A stretch of 64,000 nt of DNA from an uncultured Gammaproteobacteria bacterium (GTDB lineage Bacteria; Patescibacteriota; Patescibacteriia; Patescibacteriales; Patescibacteriaceae). The notes below the pieces were generated by a model. It ran no database searches and was not told where the DNA came from. It saw only the letters and a list, made by a program, of their open reading frames with translations. Below, one piece after another: positions 25,380 to 43,019 of this stretch. The stretch lies in the NCBI GenBank assembly GCA_964593745.1, contig CAZQHN010000002.1, forward strand, positions 66,283 through 130,282, in the 5' to 3' direction. Position numbers and translations under genes: made by a program. Within the stretch, counting starts at the first letter, position 1. Each line of letters starts with the position of its first letter.

Positions 25380-25583
25380 TGCCCCCGGTAGGAACCCTCC
25401 TTCGCTCCTTCGGAGCTACGGAAGGGCAAGTCGAACCTACATGACACATGTGCCTCCGGAGGGAATCGAACCCCCATAGCCAACTTAGAAGATTGGCGTC
25501 CTATCCATTGAACGACGGAGACTAATTTATATTATCCATTGCTTGTCCGCCGAAGCTTTAGCGTAGGCGGAAACTACAGGGAC
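25380..25583 (-). pseudogene. Disrupted outer tRNA enclosing tRNA-Arg and two palindromic inserts
   Basis: With inserts removed: GTCCCTGTAGTTCAATGGATA...GTAGGTTCGATTCCTACCGGGGGCA; acceptor and T stems still pair. Confidence 0.75.
25451..25522 (-). tRNA. tRNA-Arg(TCT)
   Basis: GTCTCCG/CGGAGGC acceptor, CCAAT-CTTCTAA-GTTGG anticodon arm, GGGGG-TTCGATT-CCCTC T arm. Confidence 0.95.
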
Positions 25584-32144: not shown

Positions 32145-32690
32145 TTAATTTAAGCCTTTTATTAAATCAGGTAATATTTTTTTAAATAAATTTTTTTCCT
32201 CATCAGAAAATTTTTGTAAAACAAAATTTTCGGCTGGAATTTTGTTTCTTAGTTGAGAGCTAATACCAATGCGTAAACGTTTAAAGTTTTGCGTTTTTAA
32301 ATAATCAATAATTGATTGAACGCCATTATGCCCGGCGCTAGAACTGTTAACTGATAATTTATATTTGCCAAGTGGTAGATCTAATTCATCATGGATAACA
32401 ATTAAATTATCACTTAAGTCACTATTTTTTTTAAGACCAAAAATAGTGCGCGGTAAAAGTTTGTAATAGTTTAAAATCTTCATCACAGCTTCGCCTGATT
32501 TATTCATGTAGGTTTGCGGTTTTACTAAAATAAAATTAGCTCCTTCAGCCATAAGAGCTTTAAATTTTTTACTTTCTTGCCAAGTTAAATTATTTTTTAA
32601 AGCCAAAGTATCAACTACTACAAAGCCGATATTGTGACGAGTTTTATTATATTTTTCGCCTGGGTTACCAAGGCCGACGATTATGGTCAT
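32145..32690 (-). CDS. pth: Peptidyl-tRNA hydrolase
   Basis: IVGLGNPG, TRHNIGF, KPQTYMN, HDELDL, GHNG. Confidence 0.97.
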   Translation of the reverse strand: MTIIVGLGNPGEKYNKTRHNIGFVVVDTLALKNNLTWQESKKFKALMAEGANFILVKPQTYMNKSGEAVMKILNYYKLLPRTIFGLKKNSDLSDNLIVIHDELDLPLGKYKLSVNSSSAGHNGVQSIIDYLKTQNFKRLRIGISSQLRNKIPAENFVLQKFSDEEKNLFKKILPDLIKGLN

Positions 32691-32739
32691 AAGTTAAGTA
32701 TAGGAGAAAAAAGATTAAAAAACAAAAACAAAATTTAAT

Positions 32740-32822
32740 TGTCATACCCCGACTTGTTCGGGGTATCCAGCCCATGAATCATTAACCACGGGCTGGATTC
32801 CCTGCCTACGCAGGGAATGACA
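32740..32822. repeat. TGTCAT...ATGACA two-arm palindromic element
   Basis: GTCATACCCCGACTTGTTCGGGGTATCCAGCCC...GGGCTGGATTCCCTGCCTACGCAGGGAATGAC. Confidence 0.8.
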
Positions 32823-32909
32823 CAAAAATGATAATGTTTTGATTTTTGTTTTTAAGAGTCATGTAGTCCATGCCTAAAATAGTTATTAAGCTATTATTAC
32901 TATAACATA

Positions 32910-33073
32910 TTTATCTTTAAATATCCGTTGACAAAATTTTAGCGAGCTGATCAAAGAACTCATATTCTAGAGGAGAGAGATTTTGCTCCCTTTCCTTGGT
33001 ATACAAGTCAGGGAGCTTAGAATAAAGCTCTCTGGCCTGATCGATTATTTTGTCAACGGGTATTTAAGGATAA
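32910..33073 (+). ncRNA. Candidate structured RNA or MITE
   Basis: 27-bp closing stem and two inner hairpins; mismatches are G-U on the plus strand. Confidence 0.5.
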
Positions 33074-33125
33074 GTAAATTTAGTAGATAGGGAGGTTTTT
33101 AATAGGTTAACCTCCCGAAAACCTT

Positions 33126-33728
33126 TTAGAAAATTTCACTGACGCAACGCTCATCCCAGGTAAAGCCACCCAAGATTTTTTCGCCGTCCCATTTATAATA
33201 ATGGGATGACGGCGAACCATAGAGGCGGCCGCTATAAGACGTGCGAAAAATAACGTCTTTGGGTATTATAGCAACCAATTGGTCGCCACTACCCATTCTT
33301 CCAGCCGTGCCTTGGGCAATTGTTCCGGAGGCAATAATTTCTCCGGGGAAATCTGAAAATATTATATCTCCATTTTCATTTTTTCCAGAGCGATCGCCGG
33401 TATGAGAGTTGCCGCCGCGGAAACCAATTTTTGTTAAAAAAACAACAACAATTTTTTCAGTTTCATCAGTTGTCTCTTTAGCAATTAGTTTTGATTTGCC
33501 AGCTTTGGTTGTGGTAAGATCGGCAAAATTAATTTTTACTATGCCTTTTCCCTGCCACTCTTTATACTGACCATTGCTCAGCTGTACAGGTAGTACTCCG
33601 CGTTGCCGGCCGCGACCGTCTTCCCCGATAATAATTGCCGGAATTTCAATGCCGGCATTTTTAAGAGAAAGTTTTTCAACGCTTGCGCCGTCTGAAACTG
33701 TACCGTTTTCAATTGTGAATATTTTCAT
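33126..33728 (-). CDS. Hypothetical Gly-rich protein
   Basis: 200 aa; AAAGGAGG upstream; followed by hairpin 33090-33116. Confidence 0.8.
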   Translation of the reverse strand: MKIFTIENGTVSDGASVEKLSLKNAGIEIPAIIIGEDGRGRQRGVLPVQLSNGQYKEWQGKGIVKINFADLTTTKAGKSKLIAKETTDETEKIVVVFLTKIGFRGGNSHTGDRSGKNENGDIIFSDFPGEIIASGTIAQGTAGRMGSGDQLVAIIPKDVIFRTSYSGRLYGSPSSHYYKWDGEKILGGFTWDERCVSEIF

Positions 33729-33833
33729 TTTTTTCAGGCCTCCTTTGCCTGTTTTATTTTTTATTTTGAAATAATGCTTTCCGAGACTATTGCTAGCTTA
33801 ATAATCTCTTTAGCATTACTTCAAAATAGGAGT

Positions 33834-33922
33834 TTCTGCTTTCGTCCTATGCCTCGCTAAAGCCACGTAGAACGTGGCGGAGGCGGGACTCATCAGTCCG
33901 GTTGCATAACCAGAGAGCAGAA
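33834..33922 (-). ncRNA. Hammerhead ribozyme (type III)
   Basis: TTCTGC-TC^-TCTGGTT(ATGC)AACCGGA-CTGATGA-GTCC...GGAC-GAAA-GCAGAA; complete catalytic core and three stems. Confidence 0.9.
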
Positions 33923-34333
33923 GGAGAAAGAAAAACCAATTCTTTCTCCGATAACCCTACTCAACCAATCCAGACTATGAATTGGTTTTTGCATGCGGCA
34001 GTGTTTTTATTCTCTGCCTAAGAATTTTTGCCGGTATTTTTATATAAGAATCATGCTGCCTTATAAAAAATTTGGATTTTGTTTTGGCAGATCCTAACCG
34101 GTCGAATAATCTGCCTAGCTATAAGGTTGCAACCCTCTTCGGACTCGGTCCAAAGAAACCGCCCCTACCTTATCACTAAATCCGCGTAGTAATAGGGGAT
34201 GGCTCATGGTTTTTGTTTTGGCTTACAGTTGTTATCCGCGGAGATAACAAGATAAGCCTTGATCGTTTTACCGGTTTCTCCTTTCTTTAGTTTTTTTAAT
34301 TGTAATTTTATTGGCCCGGTAAACCATATAAAA

Positions 34334-35710
34334 TTAGAGCTTTTCAATACCCACCCCACCAGTGGCTTTAGCAAGCTCAGCTAAAGCATGGTTAGAGCAC
34401 TCAACTACAAAGGCATGCAGTTTAGTACCTGCAAAATCCTTGGTGGTTAAATTGATAGTATCATCGCCGTCAGTTATAACGACGAGTTCCGGGCGGTAGG
34501 TTGACCCGGCTGACACTATTTCTTCGATTCTTTTCTGCGCTTCTCTAGCACACGCAGAAATATCTGTTGATCCGCCCGAGTAATTTTTCTCGGTAAAATT
34601 ACGGATCAACTCTTTGGCTTCAGAAGGAGTGGACGCGTGATGCTCCTTCTTAAGCTTTGAATCGAAGAGGCGGACATACAATTCCGCCTCGCCAGCAATT
34701 ACCGCTTTTAAGCGGTTCATGAGGATCCCGCCGGCTTTAAAGATCCTCTTCCCTTCCCCCATCGAGCCGCTGCAGTCAATGATGACATACAGCAGTTGTT
34801 TCCTTTCGATGGTTGTCACTCGTTCCCGGACCGGAATTTTTCCGGAAACGGCCAGATAGTCAAAATAAATCTTTGACTGCTGGCGTATACCCCAATAAGA
34901 TTTTTCAATCCTATTGAGTTCACCCAAGTGACGGATTGGGCGTTTGCGGATTTCGTCCCCAGCAGGATCCGCTTCCTGCTTTTTGCTCTTGCGCACTTGC
35001 ATGCGCGTAAGCTGGTCAAGGTTGCGGGAAATCTGTAACATAATTTCCTTCCCGCCTAACATATCCTCGGCTAGGGACATTTTTTGCAGACCGTCGTCTG
35101 CATCTGATTCTCCTGAACCAGCGTCCTGGTCAGGATTTTTCGGGTCCAGGAGATCTTTTTCATCCTGGGATAAGGAGTCAACCTCATCCATTAGATGATT
35201 TAGATCCTCTCCAATTTTTTCCGAGTTGTCATTCTCGGTAAAAATCGGGAGAGGTTCCTTGCCCTCTCCTCCGCCGCTTCCTCCGCTCTTTTTTGAGAGT
35301 AGCTTAAGCAAGTTCATAGCTTGCTCAAGCGGCGATTGTCCTGGAAATTTATCCAGTTCAATCGTCTGGAGAAAATCGCAGACGTTTTGGTGATAGTTCA
35401 TCGCTACCTCCACGCCGTCTGCTACGGCGGTGCTCCGAGACTTGGTGTACTCGCGACCATTGTCCCGGAGTCTTTTTAGCTTCCATTCTCCGTCTGAATC
35501 CGAGGCTGGAAGCTGGGCCTCGATTTTTTCTTGAATCACCCCGCGATAGCTGGACGGGGGAGCGATATCTCCTCCAGCCGCGAGGTTACACAAGTCGGCC
35601 ACCAAATCCCGACTAAAGGACTTGAGGCCAACTTTATTGGCAGCCTCTCGCATTTCCTCCTGGTTAGGAGGAATATAAATTGCGGGAGCTTTGGTACGGA
35701 AAGTATACAT
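34334..35710 (-). CDS. vWA-domain protein (partner of MoxR/RavA-like ATPase)
   Basis: MIDAS IIDCSGSM, GGSTDI, VVITDGDD; GAAAGGAGG upstream. Confidence 0.9.
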   Translation of the reverse strand: MYTFRTKAPAIYIPPNQEEMREAANKVGLKSFSRDLVADLCNLAAGGDIAPPSSYRGVIQEKIEAQLPASDSDGEWKLKRLRDNGREYTKSRSTAVADGVEVAMNYHQNVCDFLQTIELDKFPGQSPLEQAMNLLKLLSKKSGGSGGGEGKEPLPIFTENDNSEKIGEDLNHLMDEVDSLSQDEKDLLDPKNPDQDAGSGESDADDGLQKMSLAEDMLGGKEIMLQISRNLDQLTRMQVRKSKKQEADPAGDEIRKRPIRHLGELNRIEKSYWGIRQQSKIYFDYLAVSGKIPVRERVTTIERKQLLYVIIDCSGSMGEGKRIFKAGGILMNRLKAVIAGEAELYVRLFDSKLKKEHHASTPSEAKELIRNFTEKNYSGGSTDISACAREAQKRIEEIVSAGSTYRPELVVITDGDDTINLTTKDFAGTKLHAFVVECSNHALAELAKATGGVGIEKL

Positions 35711-35746
35711 ACTTTCCTCCTTTCTCTCCCGCGGCCAATGCGGGAA

Positions 35747-36871
35747 TTATATTTTAATTAATTCTAAAGCCTTGGCCTGGGCTTCGGAACTTTTTTGACT
35801 AATTGTGTCTCGGATTTTTTTACGACGCTCAGAGAGAGCGTCGGTAGCCTTTAGCGATGAAGCTTCATCACTTAACGCCACTAATTTTTTTGCCACTTGC
35901 ATTGCCTTAATTGGAGAAGTGGCACTCTCCAACTCATTGAGAATATTCTGAAACTTATTCTCAACGATGGAAAGATTATTCTCCGCCGCAGCTCTTTCCA
36001 TGGCTGCTTGAAGGTCCTTTTCAATTGTTTCTGCAAGACCTTCCAAACCTGGTAAGAACTTTAGATCTACCAGGTCGCCCTGATCAACATGATCAGAGCC
36101 GCGGAGCGCCGCTGAAGACTGGCACACCTGGTATGCGTGGACTGCTGTTCTCGGCGACACGAAGTTGCCTTCCGCTGTAGCTTTGGCCAAGACTTCGGCC
36201 AAAACTGCCTTGAATCCGTTAAGAATCGGACCCCAAAGGCGAGGGGCGACTTTTTCAAAAAGTTGTAGATAACTTTTTGAAGAGTAGTCTTTCCACTGCA
36301 GGTTTAACTGCAGTGGAAACCGCTCAATCAAAGCATGGGCGGCAGGCCCGAGCTCTGAAATTTCGGACGGCTGCTTGTTAGTCAAGCAGATGATTATCTC
36401 CGTCCTCATTGCGAAACGCTGAGCGCCGTTTCGCAATTCCCGCGATGTTAGCACATCTTTCAGTGCCAACAAGACGCTCGCAGGAGCGTCAAAAAGTTCC
36501 TCAAACACTGCTACCCGTGAATTGAGGAAACTTTTTTCGGGGTAGTACTCAAGGATTTTTTGATCCTCGAGTTTTTTAAAGTTCAGGCCCCCGAAAAGCC
36601 TGGACTCATCCATACCCTCGCCAAAAAATTGGCAGAAGGTTTCGGCTTCTAAGCCGAGGCCCTGGATGGTGGTCTGAATCATTTCAGACTTGGCATGGCC
36701 GCCAGGTCCGAAAATGATTATATTTTTCCCGGCGTTGAAGCCTAACTCCAACAACCGAGAAACCTCGTCAACAAAAATAAATTTGTCTTCGAGAATCTTT
36801 TTTATATTTTTATTCAATTTTTTTGCCCGTATAACGCCACGGTGCCGGGCTTTTGAGTTTGAGCGCTTCAC
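35747..36871 (-). CDS. MoxR/RavA-like AAA+ ATPase (start may be TTG 36817)
   Basis: Walker A GPGGHAKS, Walker B VAVFEELFDA, sensor CLTN, ALIERF, VSPRT. Confidence 0.88.
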   Translation of the reverse strand: MKRSNSKARHRGVIRAKKLNKNIKKILEDKFIFVDEVSRLLELGFNAGKNIIIFGPGGHAKSEMIQTTIQGLGLEAETFCQFFGEGMDESRLFGGLNFKKLEDQKILEYYPEKSFLNSRVAVFEELFDAPASVLLALKDVLTSRELRNGAQRFAMRTEIIICLTNKQPSEISELGPAAHALIERFPLQLNLQWKDYSSKSYLQLFEKVAPRLWGPILNGFKAVLAEVLAKATAEGNFVSPRTAVHAYQVCQSSAALRGSDHVDQGDLVDLKFLPGLEGLAETIEKDLQAAMERAAAENNLSIVENKFQNILNELESATSPIKAMQVAKKLVALSDEASSLKATDALSERRKKIRDTISQKSSEAQAKALELIKI

Positions 36872-37004
36872 CCATTCTTCATTAAGGGAATAGATGAACC
36901 TAGCACTCCTCGCCGTCTTATTGGTGGCGAATAACCCAGGATTCAGTCGTTCCTATCAACGACTGTCCTGAAAAAATTTTCAGAAGTCGGATAGGCGACT
37001 TATT

Positions 37005-37478
37005 TTACCAGGGACATACCGAAGTTTCAGTCCCTGGAATTATTTCTTCCTTTCCCCACACTAAAGCATGTGAGGTCCAGAACTTGCGACTCTTCGGCGT
37101 CGCGTTTTTATCCCAGAGCTCTGGCTCTGGTTTACCGCCGATAAAAGCGGTAACCAGAACATATGTCCCGGGTTGTTCGTCCGCCGTCTTTAGAATAACG
37201 ACAACGGTTGAACAAGGTTCGGCTTGACGGTTCTTTACAAACCGGCTCAGCCCGAACCTTTTGGGCCTTTGAGCAAAAACAATTTGATCGCCTAGCCCTG
37301 TGGCGACGCAGATTGTTTCCCCGATGATTCGGTCAAGATCGACCTCCTCAACGAGGAACTTTCTCCCCTTGCTTTCAATTTTTCCTAATGCCTCGGGGAG
37401 AATGTCGAGGACACTAGAATGAAGATGGCTGTTGTAGCGATCTACAACAGCCTCTCCACTTTTTATTTTATAATTCAT
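37005..37478 (-). CDS. Hypothetical protein
   Basis: 157 aa; AGGAGG upstream; RPKRFGLSRFV, YVLVTAFIG, FWTSHALVW. Confidence 0.8.
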   Translation of the reverse strand: MNYKIKSGEAVVDRYNSHLHSSVLDILPEALGKIESKGRKFLVEEVDLDRIIGETICVATGLGDQIVFAQRPKRFGLSRFVKNRQAEPCSTVVVILKTADEQPGTYVLVTAFIGGKPEPELWDKNATPKSRKFWTSHALVWGKEEIIPGTETSVCPW

Positions 37479-37742
37479 TTTTCTTGCCCCTCCTGTGGCA
37501 AGAATTTTTTTTAGTTTTTAAAATAATGCCCCGAAAGTTTATAAGCATGGGGCTGATAAACTTCCGTTCGCATTATTTTAAACTTTATAACAGGAGAATA
37601 TTATATTATGTATTTTACTTTACATATTTTTATAATTATTTTTTTATCATTAACAAACCAGCGGTTGCTGACGTTGCTGTTTTGGCACCAACGTAAAATC
37701 ACCGTCTAATTTATTAAGTTTATTCTATTGTAAATGTTCAGT

Positions 37743-37909
37743 TTTACTGTTCCGTAGTTCGCCGAAGGCGAACGCAGGACAGCTCTCTCCTCTTTTATTT
37801 ACCATTCCTGACTTACGTCAGGCAGGCCGTAGCCACGTAGAACGTGGCGTAGGTGGGTTTTACCATTCCGTAGCCACGTAGAACGTGGCGTAGGATGGCT
37901 CTCTCCTCT
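37743..37909 (-). repeat. Cluster of three hairpin repeats, one with a nested 20-bp insertion
   Basis: CCATCCTACGCCACGTTCTACGTGGCTACGGAATGGTAAA and two variants. Confidence 0.8.
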
Positions 37910-38216
37910 ATTATGAAAACCTCAATGGTCTTCTGTAGAGTTTTAATAAAGAGGTTTATGAAGGCAAGACGGGTTAAATCTTGTCTTCAACCGATCTCTT
38001 TACTAAGAACGGTTGGCAGGAATGTCGTTGGGGGAGTTTACTCGTCCTTTTTGGACAATTCACTACGCCCTACTGGTACATCGTCCGTAATATTGACCGG
38101 TCGTCTTTTCCGATCCTTATTACAGGCTTGTCTAGTAACTCTCTCCTCGAGATTTATCAGACTCAAATCCTGCGCGACGATTTGACAAATTTAAAGAACT
38201 ATTTTATTACACTGGC

Positions 38217-38245
38217 ATTATAACAGAATATTATAAAAGTGTCAA
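38217..38245 (-). promoter_or_regulatory. Consensus sigma70 promoter of the island operon
   Basis: TTGACA-17 bp-TATAAT with extended -10 TG; boxA-like AGTTCTTTAAAT just downstream. Confidence 0.85.
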
Positions 38246-38341
38246 TAATAATGCTAACAAAATTGACCACTGATTAACAATGACATTGACAGTATTGATT
38301 AATACGCTGATAATTATTGATTAATTTTGTCATTATTTAGG

Positions 38342-38369
38342 TTGACAAATTGTATAGCTATGCTATAAT
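38342..38369 (+). promoter_or_regulatory. Sigma70 promoter of the TrmB-like gene
   Basis: TTGACA-16 bp-TATAAT with extended -10 TG. Confidence 0.75.
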
Positions 38370-38414
38370 TAAAGCAGTGGATCCTAGCTTTCGCTAGGAT
38401 GACAATTGATAAAT

Positions 38415-39164
38415 ATGTATAAAGATATTCTAAATGAGCTTGGTTTAACTAAAACCCAAGCTGAAATAATGGCCTTTTTATTGGAAAACGGATCGGCTAA
38501 GGCTAGTTTTATAGCCCAAAAAACCACTGTTCCCAGAGGTGTGGCTTATAAAGGTCTTGATGAATTGGTTAATTTAGGCCTGGTTGAGAAAAAACAAGCC
38601 GGTAAAATTACGGTTTTTCAGGCCGAGCACCCTATTAAGTTAGAGAAAATCATTGAAAATAAGGAAAAAGAAGCTAATCAAGCTAGGCAAAGACTGACTG
38701 GTTTATTGCCGGAATTGGTTTCTATGTATAACTTAGCCAATCATCGCCCAGGCGTTTATTTTTATGAAGGTAATGAGGGGATTGAGCAGGTTTTAAATGA
38801 TAGTTTAGAAAGCAAAACCGAGATTTATACTTATGCTGATCTTGAGGCCGTGACAGCTGAATTAAAAGAGATTAATGCGCGCTATGCCAAAGAGCGGGAT
38901 AAACGGGGCATAAAAAAGAAAATTATTGTGGCTGACACTGAGTTTAATCATAATTTTTTTATGGATTATGATAAAACCATTACGGAAATAAGATATTTAA
39001 AAAAAGAATTTTATCAGTTTAAAACCGGTATGCAAATTTATGATGGAAAAATTTCTTACCAGGTTATGGACGGCAATAACAAGTTAGGCATTATTATTCA
39101 TGATCAGCATATTTACGAAATGCATAAGTTGTTATTTGAATTTATTTGGAAAAAATTAGAATAG
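38415..39164 (+). CDS. TrmB-family transcriptional regulator
   Basis: LNELGLTKTQAEI...VPRGVAYKGLDELVNLGLV wHTH; PGVYFYEGNEGI. Confidence 0.88.
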   Translation: MYKDILNELGLTKTQAEIMAFLLENGSAKASFIAQKTTVPRGVAYKGLDELVNLGLVEKKQAGKITVFQAEHPIKLEKIIENKEKEANQARQRLTGLLPELVSMYNLANHRPGVYFYEGNEGIEQVLNDSLESKTEIYTYADLEAVTAELKEINARYAKERDKRGIKKKIIVADTEFNHNFFMDYDKTITEIRYLKKEFYQFKTGMQIYDGKISYQVMDGNNKLGIIIHDQHIYEMHKLLFEFIWKKLE

Positions 39165-41627: not shown

Positions 41628-43019
41628 TTATGAGTTATGTAGCCCATGCACGTCTCGTCCCTTTTTTACCCACATGGAAATCGGCGTTCCCAAAAAGCCA
41701 TATTTAGCCCTTAATTGATTTTCTAAAAATCTTAGATAAGTCTCAGCTAAGCTTTCGCGCGGTCCGATCTGTACCATAAATTGCGGTGGGTTTACACCGG
41801 TTTGTTTAAATTCATAAATTCTAGGGTATTTTGTGCCCTTACCTTTAGTGGGGCGATGTTTTAAAATAGCAGTTTTTAATAAACGGTTTAAACTAGCGTC
41901 AGGGATTTCCAAATATCTTTGCCTATTAACTTCAATAATTAGATCTAGTAATTGATTAATGCGCACTCGATTTTTAGCTGATAAAAATTGAATTGGTGCA
42001 TGAGTAGCAAAGGGTAATCTGCCTTGAATATAATTAGTATATTTTTTGGGATCACGCTCAAGAGCTAGGTCCCATTTGTTGGCGACTAAAATTAGACTTT
42101 TATGGCGGTCAAAGATTTCTTCAACTAATCTAGCATCTTGTTTAGTTAAGGGTTCAGCAATATCCATAACTAAAATAGTAAGATGTGATTTGTGTACTGA
42201 CGCCAAACTTTTGTCCATGCTAAATTTTTCTAAATTATCTACCTTATGGCCATGCTTAGTAATACCAGCGGTATCAACAAATTCTAAATCATGATTTTTA
42301 TAATTAAAGAATGCGGCCTGTGGTTCTCTAGTAGTATGCGGCACCGGACTAACTATGACGCGAGGATAGCCTAAAATAGCGTTGATTAAACTTGATTTAC
42401 CAACATTTGGTTTACCAATAATTGCCACTTTTATAATTTGTTGATCACTCTTAGCTTTTTTATCCGCCGTAGCTTCAGCGTAGGCGGGAATTTTTTTTAA
42501 AACTATTTCTAATAAATCACCTGTACCAGCGCCAGTTAAAGCAGAAATTGATATAACTTCACCCCAGCCTAAGCGATGAAATTCTCCGGCCGCTGGAGTT
42601 AGATTAAGCTTTTCTACTTTATTGGCGACCAAAATTACTTTTTTCTTATCGGCGATTATTCTTTTAAGAATTAAGGCCATGGTTATATCCTGTGGCAAAA
42701 GTCCATCGCGCGCATCAACTAAAAATAAAATTAAATCAGCCTTTTTTAAATAATCACGCGCTTGTTTTTGCACAAGCTCATCAATGGTTTCCGCTTTAAT
42801 TTTTTTTAATCTTAAAAAATCAAGATTCATAAAACCTCCAGTATCAACTAAATCAAAAATTCTACCTTGCCATTTAACGCTAGCTAGGTTTGAATCGCGC
42901 GTGGTACCAGGAAAATTTGAAACTAAGGCTTGATGCTTTTCAGTTAAGCAATTAAAAAGCGTGGACTTACCAACATTGGTACGACCGAAGATTACGACTA
43001 GAGGTTTACTGAGGGTCAT
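41628..43019 (-). CDS. der: Ribosome biogenesis GTPase Der
   Basis: Two G domains (GRTNVGKS/DTGG/NKVE; GKPNVGKS/DTAG/NKWD) plus KH-like C-terminus. Confidence 0.97.
   Translation of the reverse strand: MTLSKPLVVIFGRTNVGKSTLFNCLTEKHQALVSNFPGTTRDSNLASVKWQGRIFDLVDTGGFMNLDFLRLKKIKAETIDELVQKQARDYLKKADLILFLVDARDGLLPQDITMALILKRIIADKKKVILVANKVEKLNLTPAAGEFHRLGWGEVISISALTGAGTGDLLEIVLKKIPAYAEATADKKAKSDQQIIKVAIIGKPNVGKSSLINAILGYPRVIVSPVPHTTREPQAAFFNYKNHDLEFVDTAGITKHGHKVDNLEKFSMDKSLASVHKSHLTILVMDIAEPLTKQDARLVEEIFDRHKSLILVANKWDLALERDPKKYTNYIQGRLPFATHAPIQFLSAKNRVRINQLLDLIIEVNRQRYLEIPDASLNRLLKTAILKHRPTKGKGTKYPRIYEFKQTGVNPPQFMVQIGPRESLAETYLRFLENQLRAKYGFLGTPISMWVKKGRDVHGLHNS

Follow-up and report, generated by a model that had tools for sequence, protein, structure and literature searches.

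A type III hammerhead ribozyme motif with a complete core lies on the minus strand of the window (the whole 64,000-nucleotide stretch of DNA that was analyzed), within an array of genes headed by a divergent regulator of the TrmB family. This sequence-intact motif likely cuts the array transcript and frees the message of the downstream cargo gene ORF200, and the dispersed palindromic repeat placed beyond the internal loop of its stem II is predicted to be tolerated. A probability of about 0.6 is assigned to this reading. The coordinates of the motif and of the surrounding features are collected in Table 1.

Transcription of the array would start at the promoter at 38217. The ribozyme would cleave between 33915 and 33914, 186 nt ahead of ORF200, and the ORF200 message would thereby part from the genes that precede it, as originally predicted. 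Cleavage would be aided by a contact between U33908 of loop I and A33848 of loop II, possibly together with a second contact between A33907 and U33849. In the type III layout, stems I and II stay on the downstream message together with the repeat, so the 5'-OH product would start base-paired, directly in stem I, and would carry a structured leader of 186 nt. A base-paired 5' end would slow RNase J. The paired start and the leader would thus hinder RNase J, and each cargo gene would be insulated against its neighbors by a protected leader of its own making. The repeat would be a tolerated passenger, inserted in the one part of the ribozyme that can vary freely in length.

Two aspects appear to be new. 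Near-identical strains retain the hammerhead module and exchange the gene behind it, and stem II has probably acquired a dispersed DNA hairpin repeat in more than one lineage. The latter is a natural parallel to the aptamers that engineers graft onto stem II of hammerheads. The arrays provide a compact test case, as they combine a single promoter and a single regulator with variable cargo in a host that has RNase J.

Table 1. Features of the hammerhead motif and of the surrounding gene array (window coordinates)
Feature	Position	Strand	Remarks
Type III hammerhead ribozyme motif	33834..33922	minus	predicted cut 33915/33914 after CUC; stem II 4 bp
Stem III arms	5' arm 33922-33917, 3' arm 33839-33834	minus	
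Cleavage triplet CUC	33917-33915	minus	
CUGAUGA	33896-33890	minus	
GAAA	33843-33840	minus	
Stem I loop	33908-33903	minus	stem I drawn as 6 bp with this 6-nt loop
Stem II	33889-33886 with 33847-33844	minus	
Stem II extension, 38 nt	33848..33885	minus	C:AUA internal loop, helix IIb and distal 17-mer hairpin
Helix IIb	33884-33880 with 33855-33851	minus	
17-mer inner hairpin	33862..33878	minus	among the genomes searched, a variant peculiar to this one
Two full palindrome members	37822..37894	minus	same inner 17-mer; variable part of the leader
Spacer before ORF200	33729..33833	minus	long predicted hairpin (33828-33762) and ribosome-binding-like site; one module with the hammerhead in other strains
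ORF200	33126..33728	minus	downstream cargo gene; 541 homologs; confident all-beta model
Spacer after the vWA gene, 411 nt	33923..34333	minus	predicted hairpins; z -3.4 for 33940-34340
Weak promoter-like site	34332-34305	minus	9/12; inside the 411-nt spacer
vWA-domain gene	34334..35710	minus	cargo
MoxR-type AAA ATPase gene	35747..36871	minus	cargo
ORF157	37005..37478	minus	cargo; phrog_23674; homolog in the five-hammerhead array of G654
Conserved hairpin module	37508-37583	minus	just upstream of the first cargo gene; 88% identity with G016
Conserved structured leader RNA	37900..38200	minus	280 nt align with G016 at 81% identity
Sigma-70-type promoter consensus	38217..38245	minus	12/12 with TG; facing the array
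TrmB-family regulator gene	38406..39164	plus	divergent, heads the island; back to back with the promoter
Conserved structured RNA module, ~160 nt	32915..33075	minus	3' end of the array; common to G010, G016 and G017

Structure and detection of the hammerhead motif

The original prediction had described a canonical hammerhead at this site, here assigned to type III. Each of its elements was found at its position when the minus strand was checked: the core C3-U-G-A-N-G-A9, G12-A-A, A15.1-U16.1 and H17 is complete and in order, all three stems are present in the sequence, stems I and II are closed and stem III is open. For stem I, proposed as 7 bp, a drawing of 6 bp with a 6-nt loop that begins at U33908 is preferred, since in the relatives the seventh pair does not covary and its U is invariant. 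This pair is formed in 35 of 40 relatives, compared with 35.0 for shuffled partners. The cleavage triplet is CUC rather than GUC, as it is in 14 of the 58 family members; the available text of PMC1636495 contains no data on the CUC triplet.

When the motif was folded in isolation, the hammerhead fold was obtained in both the MFE and the centroid structure (-38.1 kcal/mol, z -3.1), and 2 of 200 shuffled sequences were equally good. The probability of all three stems is 0.52-0.54 for the isolated motif and ranges from 0.000 to 0.52 in 24 sequence contexts. A competing fold is predicted there, in which the upstream sequence offers an alternative partner for the 5' arm of stem III. The relatives of the motif do no better when folded in context, with medians of 0.02 for the three-stem probability.

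A descriptor with 4-bp stems gave a single match in the whole genome (1,038,896 bases, or 1.04 Mb, both strands; 36% GC) and one match in total over 20 shuffled genomes. With 3-bp stems the descriptor was non-specific (three real matches versus a shuffled mean of 1.5). The Rfam search proposed with the original prediction gave a divided answer. The RF00008 model aligns over its full span, positions 1-54, with 25.4 bits and an E of 0.042, the long loop II being handled as an insertion, but this score falls short of the gathering score of 48.5; at the gathering level only tRNAs and no hammerhead were obtained. No other ribozyme family gave an Rfam match at E values up to 10 within 32600-38500.

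A model (R1) was built on 32 relatives with the present copy left out. The present copy scored 54.4 bits with this model, compared with 17.4 bits for the runner-up in the window, and no second hammerhead copy was found with it in either the window or the genome. When 150 other genomes of the order were sampled, R1 matched 25; some of them had contributed to the model. Pattern and model searches together provided a family set of 44, later 58, distinct copies. In the alignment of the 32 relatives, changes on both sides are seen at 13 of the 15 pairs. Because the relatives had been selected with a descriptor of pairing, pairs 5 and 6 of stem I, which the filter did not demand, constitute the cleaner test; both are paired in 44 of 44 copies, with shuffled means of 29 and 26, respectively. 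The core is intact in the present copy and in 12 other long-stem copies, which was in part imposed by the search patterns. The next ORF is located on the same strand for 32 of the 36 short- or long-stem hammerheads for which context was available. On sequence grounds, the motif is a member of a family of Patescibacteria hammerheads placed between variable genes in TrmB-adjacent arrays.

Hammerheads with a loop II of 15-19 nt look like a separate subfamily. Repeat likeness was found in 0 of 11 members of this group, 5 of 9 are on the same strand as their neighbors and hence show no strand bias, and its 14 rows were omitted from the tree described below and from the model. Loci L147-L153 contain hammerheads of this kind, which are often single and often antisense to the neighboring genes.

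Cargo genes and reuse of the hammerhead module

In near-identical strains, a different gene stands behind the module formed by the hammerhead and the spacer that follows it. In run X6, which is from another study and 99% alike, a contig of 183 nt covers 33720-33900 at a depth of 25.7, compared with 10.7 for ORF200, and its loose end at 33720 runs into a second gene. Another gene likewise stands behind the leader in X6, at 37507, and the AAA and vWA genes are found at about one-fifth of the depth. Run X7 from the same study agrees with X6 on depth (9.3 versus 5.4); both runs were compared as contigs, in which a genome with two copies looks the same as a mixture of two strains. The X6 junctions are located at the spacer and start codon and not at the cut site. 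A variant contig from run X4 (depth 3.7) has two changes, in stem III and helix IIb, that yield G-U pairs, and another change that breaks a lone predicted pair within the insert. Two RNA runs from a related study contain nothing over 33600-34450 and are uninformative on expression.

The original prediction had placed the ribozyme inside an operon. The genes are co-oriented, as that description implies, but they do not form a fixed operon: ORF200 and the AAA and vWA genes are exchangeable cargo of the TrmB-headed array. No AAA or vWA match was found at nine loci with ORF200 homologs (L013-L021). The ORF200-homolog loci in three genomes of the same genus contain at least three type III hammerheads each, positioned between unrelated genes. 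Among 17 other genomes of the genus, the island is present at the der-pth site in three (G010, G011 and G016) and across der in one (G017), and 13 have no TrmB gene or hammerhead in the stretch examined at that site. Arrays with at least three hammerheads are found at or beside der-pth in G010, G011, G016 and G017, and the cargo is different in each. No prophage genes were seen beside the island. A second type of array exists in the genus at L059-L063 (G015, G007, G016, G001 and G014), with a co-oriented terminal TrmB gene and one or two hammerheads.

The leader and the RNA module at the 3' end of the array are common to G016 and in part to G010 and G017. The leader region (37700-38210) folds with a z of -6.9. 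For the 411-nt spacer, no homolog was found in 315 genomes of the order, where only matches of 21-64 bases were obtained, mostly to A/T-rich parts. In the 3'-end module, 6 of the 42 predicted pairs are compensatory among four sequences, and no Rfam match was obtained at E values up to 10. A hammerhead is located directly before a module of this type in G010 and G016; none is located there in the present genome or in G017.

The best match to ORF200 is from a Falkowbacteria genome, which, together with the genome size of 1.04 Mb and the GC content of 36%, points to a host within the Patescibacteria. The homologs contain many invariant Gly, Arg and His residues. The predicted structure is all-beta with a pLDDT of 94. 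Its nearest structural match is an uncharacterised protein of an archaeal rod-shaped virus (TM 0.47), and no clear match was found in the PDB (best Z 4.4). The family has no Pfam, PHROG or PADLOC assignment, the atlas scores are 0.77 or lower, and no homologs were found in viral contigs.

Gene blocks flanked by ribozymes have been published. In the accessible text of PMC3088659, clustered hammerheads of bacteria and prophages are likewise located between co-oriented, non-constant genes, the processing of gene-sized messages is proposed, and tandem bacterial hammerheads are reported to cleave polycistronic RNAs of ~2 kb in vitro. Relative to that text, the present array differs in being a TrmB-headed chromosomal island of Patescibacteria, in having a palindrome in stem II, and in lacking a conserved pseudoknot. 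Apart from glmS, the purpose that self-cleaving ribozymes serve in bacteria is described as an open question in the available part of PMC6765202. A sub-threshold hammerhead cluster is named in a 2026 preprint on noncoding clusters (10.64898/2026.10.21.760802), the main text of which mentions neither Patescibacteria nor TrmB; the supplements of that preprint may bear on novelty. Literature searches that combined hammerhead with Patescibacteria, or with repetitive extragenic palindromic, returned nothing within a scope outside which subscription papers and bioRxiv supplements lie. The combination with candidate phyla radiation returned only a general review.

The palindrome in stem II and the contact between loops I and II

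The original prediction that a repeat copy lengthens stem II and leaves the core untouched holds. The size of the repeat was understated: the 17-mer is only the inner hairpin of a family member of ~35 nt. From its sequence, the extension is assigned as a degenerate member of a genome-wide dispersed palindrome family that has constant outer arms and a variable inner hairpin. This family is dispersed in the present genome, with 20 matches compared with 3 in a reversed control. The corresponding values are 28 versus 1 in G699, 8 versus 15 in G536, and 2 versus 1 in G010. Nine of the 20 copies are within 300 nt of a tRNA gene, a distance that encompasses 2.8% of the genome, and copies abut genes for tRNA-Leu, tRNA-Gly, tRNA-Arg and tRNA-Gln elsewhere in the genome. 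In the window, members at ~25380-25400 and ~25550-25570 flank a tRNA-Arg gene (25451-25522), and another member is in frame within the der GTPase gene (~42460-42495, minus strand).

Exact copies of the 17-mer appear three times in the window, at 33862, 37832 and 37873, compared with a chance mean of 0.03. There are no exact copies elsewhere in the genome, and a fourth copy with one mismatch is found on contig C1. In 40 other genomes of the family the variant was detected in one, with two mismatches, which equals the control level. Among 12 other stem II extensions of at least 21 nt, four match the repeat family at the floor p of 0.003, two are borderline and six are without likeness. Repeat-family inserts in stem II are thereby found in four other genomes or contigs, and the inner hairpins vary between genomes. 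With the two leader copies set aside, the match of the present copy to the repeat family reaches only p 0.047.

Long and short forms of stem II are found together within single arrays. A single clade of long forms was rejected (AU p 5e-8) with a 31-column scaffold tree, which has few and paired columns and from which the 14 mid-length rows were left out. The present copy falls in a supported clade with L099, L089, L102 and L088, which have repeat-like extensions, and with six short forms. L094 falls in the other clade, so at least two independent gains of the repeat in stem II are likely. The insertion in the present copy may be old and inherited, with an inner hairpin that was rewritten locally later, rather than new. 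No pre-insertion allele was found among the six DNA runs compared, which have no joints. In G010 and G017, ORF200 homologs are preceded by short hammerheads; these have other stems and were rejected as direct precursors.

The REP and REPIN elements (PMC3733652) are likewise short, GC-rich dispersed palindromes that are found between genes and in frame within genes. Compared with the available description of those elements, the present family has ~20 copies, a strong bias to the ends of tRNA genes, and Y1 transposase genes without a flanking strict copy. Of the two Y1_Tnp genes in the genome, neither has a strict palindrome copy within 1.5 kb, and one copy with a single mismatch is located ~1.3 kb past the gene on C10. 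The element is therefore called REP-like and not REP.

The segments TATGC at loop I and GCATA beside stem II had been read as consistent with the tertiary contact of natural hammerheads. Their complementarity is present, but it reuses U33908 as well as G33852 and C33851 of helix IIb; the mean pair probability of this helix is 0.8-1.0, and two of the five pairs of the proposed contact compete with it. In long-stem relatives, the longest complementary run between the loops is no better than with shuffled partners (permutation p 0.15-0.59), positions 3 and 4 are at chance, and a 5-bp Watson–Crick pseudoknot was rejected as a feature of the family. The four or more covarying Watson–Crick pairs between stems I and II that characterize a pseudoknot in the accessible text of PMC3088659 were not found. 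L088 and L094 have runs of 3-4 Watson–Crick pairs between the loops (five with G-U), so a 5-bp pseudoknot may still exist in the present copy alone. When the loops are kept in register, contact position 2 is Watson–Crick in 11 of 21 longer forms, compared with 6.1 expected (p 0.01, as one of 24 tests and with kin that are not independent). A contact of one or two pairs would be the better reading than a helix of 5 bp.

A U-A contact of the type described in PMC2632901, possibly with one additional pair, fits better than the 5-bp contact. With pair 7 of stem I not covarying and its U fixed, the loop has 6 nt and matches the UNmYN form of that source: residues 33908-33903 are U, three bases, C and A, and the first U is found in 56 of the 58 family members. 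Loop 2 ends in A33848, and an A is found at this position in 16 of 16 distinct short-loop pairs; in most long forms it was forced by the search patterns, and these were not counted. Loop 2 starts with C33885 instead of a purine, the relatives having a purine in 29 and a pyrimidine in 15 of 44. The type III hammerheads in the available part of PMC2632901, including the minus strand of CChMVd, share the loop 1 that starts with U, the penultimate pyrimidine and the stem II element that ends in A. The CChMVd minus strand also has an extended stem II with an internal loop, as is the case here, and is a natural hammerhead that works with its internal loop 2. In the present internal loop, a C stands at the 5' base in place of the purine of the RNnA motif given there. 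The present extension is derived, by its likeness, from a DNA repeat family, and the motif is found on a bacterial chromosome and not in a viroid.

Rival readings

The genome contains genes for RNase J and RNase Y, and RNase E/G was not found. In B. subtilis the 5'-OH product of the glmS ribozyme is degraded by RNase J1 (available text of 10.1101/2023.03.12.532304), so protection of the ORF200 message by stem I is something that we only infer. The same facts would fit an active ribozyme that lowers the output of ORF200 by handing 5'-OH RNA to RNase J as for glmS, with less product from the downstream than from the upstream cargo. This is considered unlikely. The predicted product opens with a 6-bp stem that is followed by more strong hairpins, and in the relatives a hammerhead precedes nearly every cargo gene, so uniform processing fits better than repression of a single gene. 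It is also conceivable, though quite unlikely, that the insert slowed or silenced the ribozyme and that the module was kept mainly as a patch of DNA homology and a ribosome-binding spacer for the swapping of cassettes. The 5' pyrimidine of the internal loop, the CUC triplet, the competing upstream pairing, and the junctions at spacer and start codon in other strains speak in its favor. It is opposed by the core that is retained here and in the 12 other long-stem copies, with the search-pattern proviso given above, and by the two X4 changes that yield G-U pairs in stem III and helix IIb, which come from one low-depth contig.

In a more far-reaching reading, stem II of these array hammerheads would be a plug-in socket that has repeatedly received a mobile hairpin with catalysis left intact; a protein that binds the hairpin could switch cleavage, and the ribozyme-spacer module would be the joint for cargo swaps; this is distinctly improbable and, if true, would be the first natural protein-responsive hammerhead. 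A related reading, in which the repeat is a control input and a hairpin-binding protein tunes cleavage as a natural switch coupled to the two leader hairpins, is very improbable. In its favor are the identical 17-mer, three copies of which lie in the island with no exact copy in the rest of the genome, and the recurrence of repeat-family inserts in four other genomes or contigs. The palindromes that abut tRNA genes or are in frame in the GTPase gene look more like tolerated insertion, the inner hairpins vary from one genome to another, and no strict copy flanks either Y1 transposase gene. We know of no protein that binds the palindrome hairpin family. Hardly any credence is given to hammerheads that define linear or circular RNA intermediates for moving cassettes, as in retrozymes. 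Some relatives have genes between two hammerheads, and one reverse transcriptase gene is found on contig C5 of the present genome (G000), but this genome has a single family member, the X6 junctions are at the start codon and not at the cut, and RtcB was searched for without success in G000 (98% complete) and in four of four array carriers of the same genus, although it is present in G699. The reverse transcriptase gene is moreover on another contig with unrelated genes around it. It is located at G000:C5:17059-18456 near tandem 99-nt repeats, and the start of its product presumably resembles group II intron proteins.
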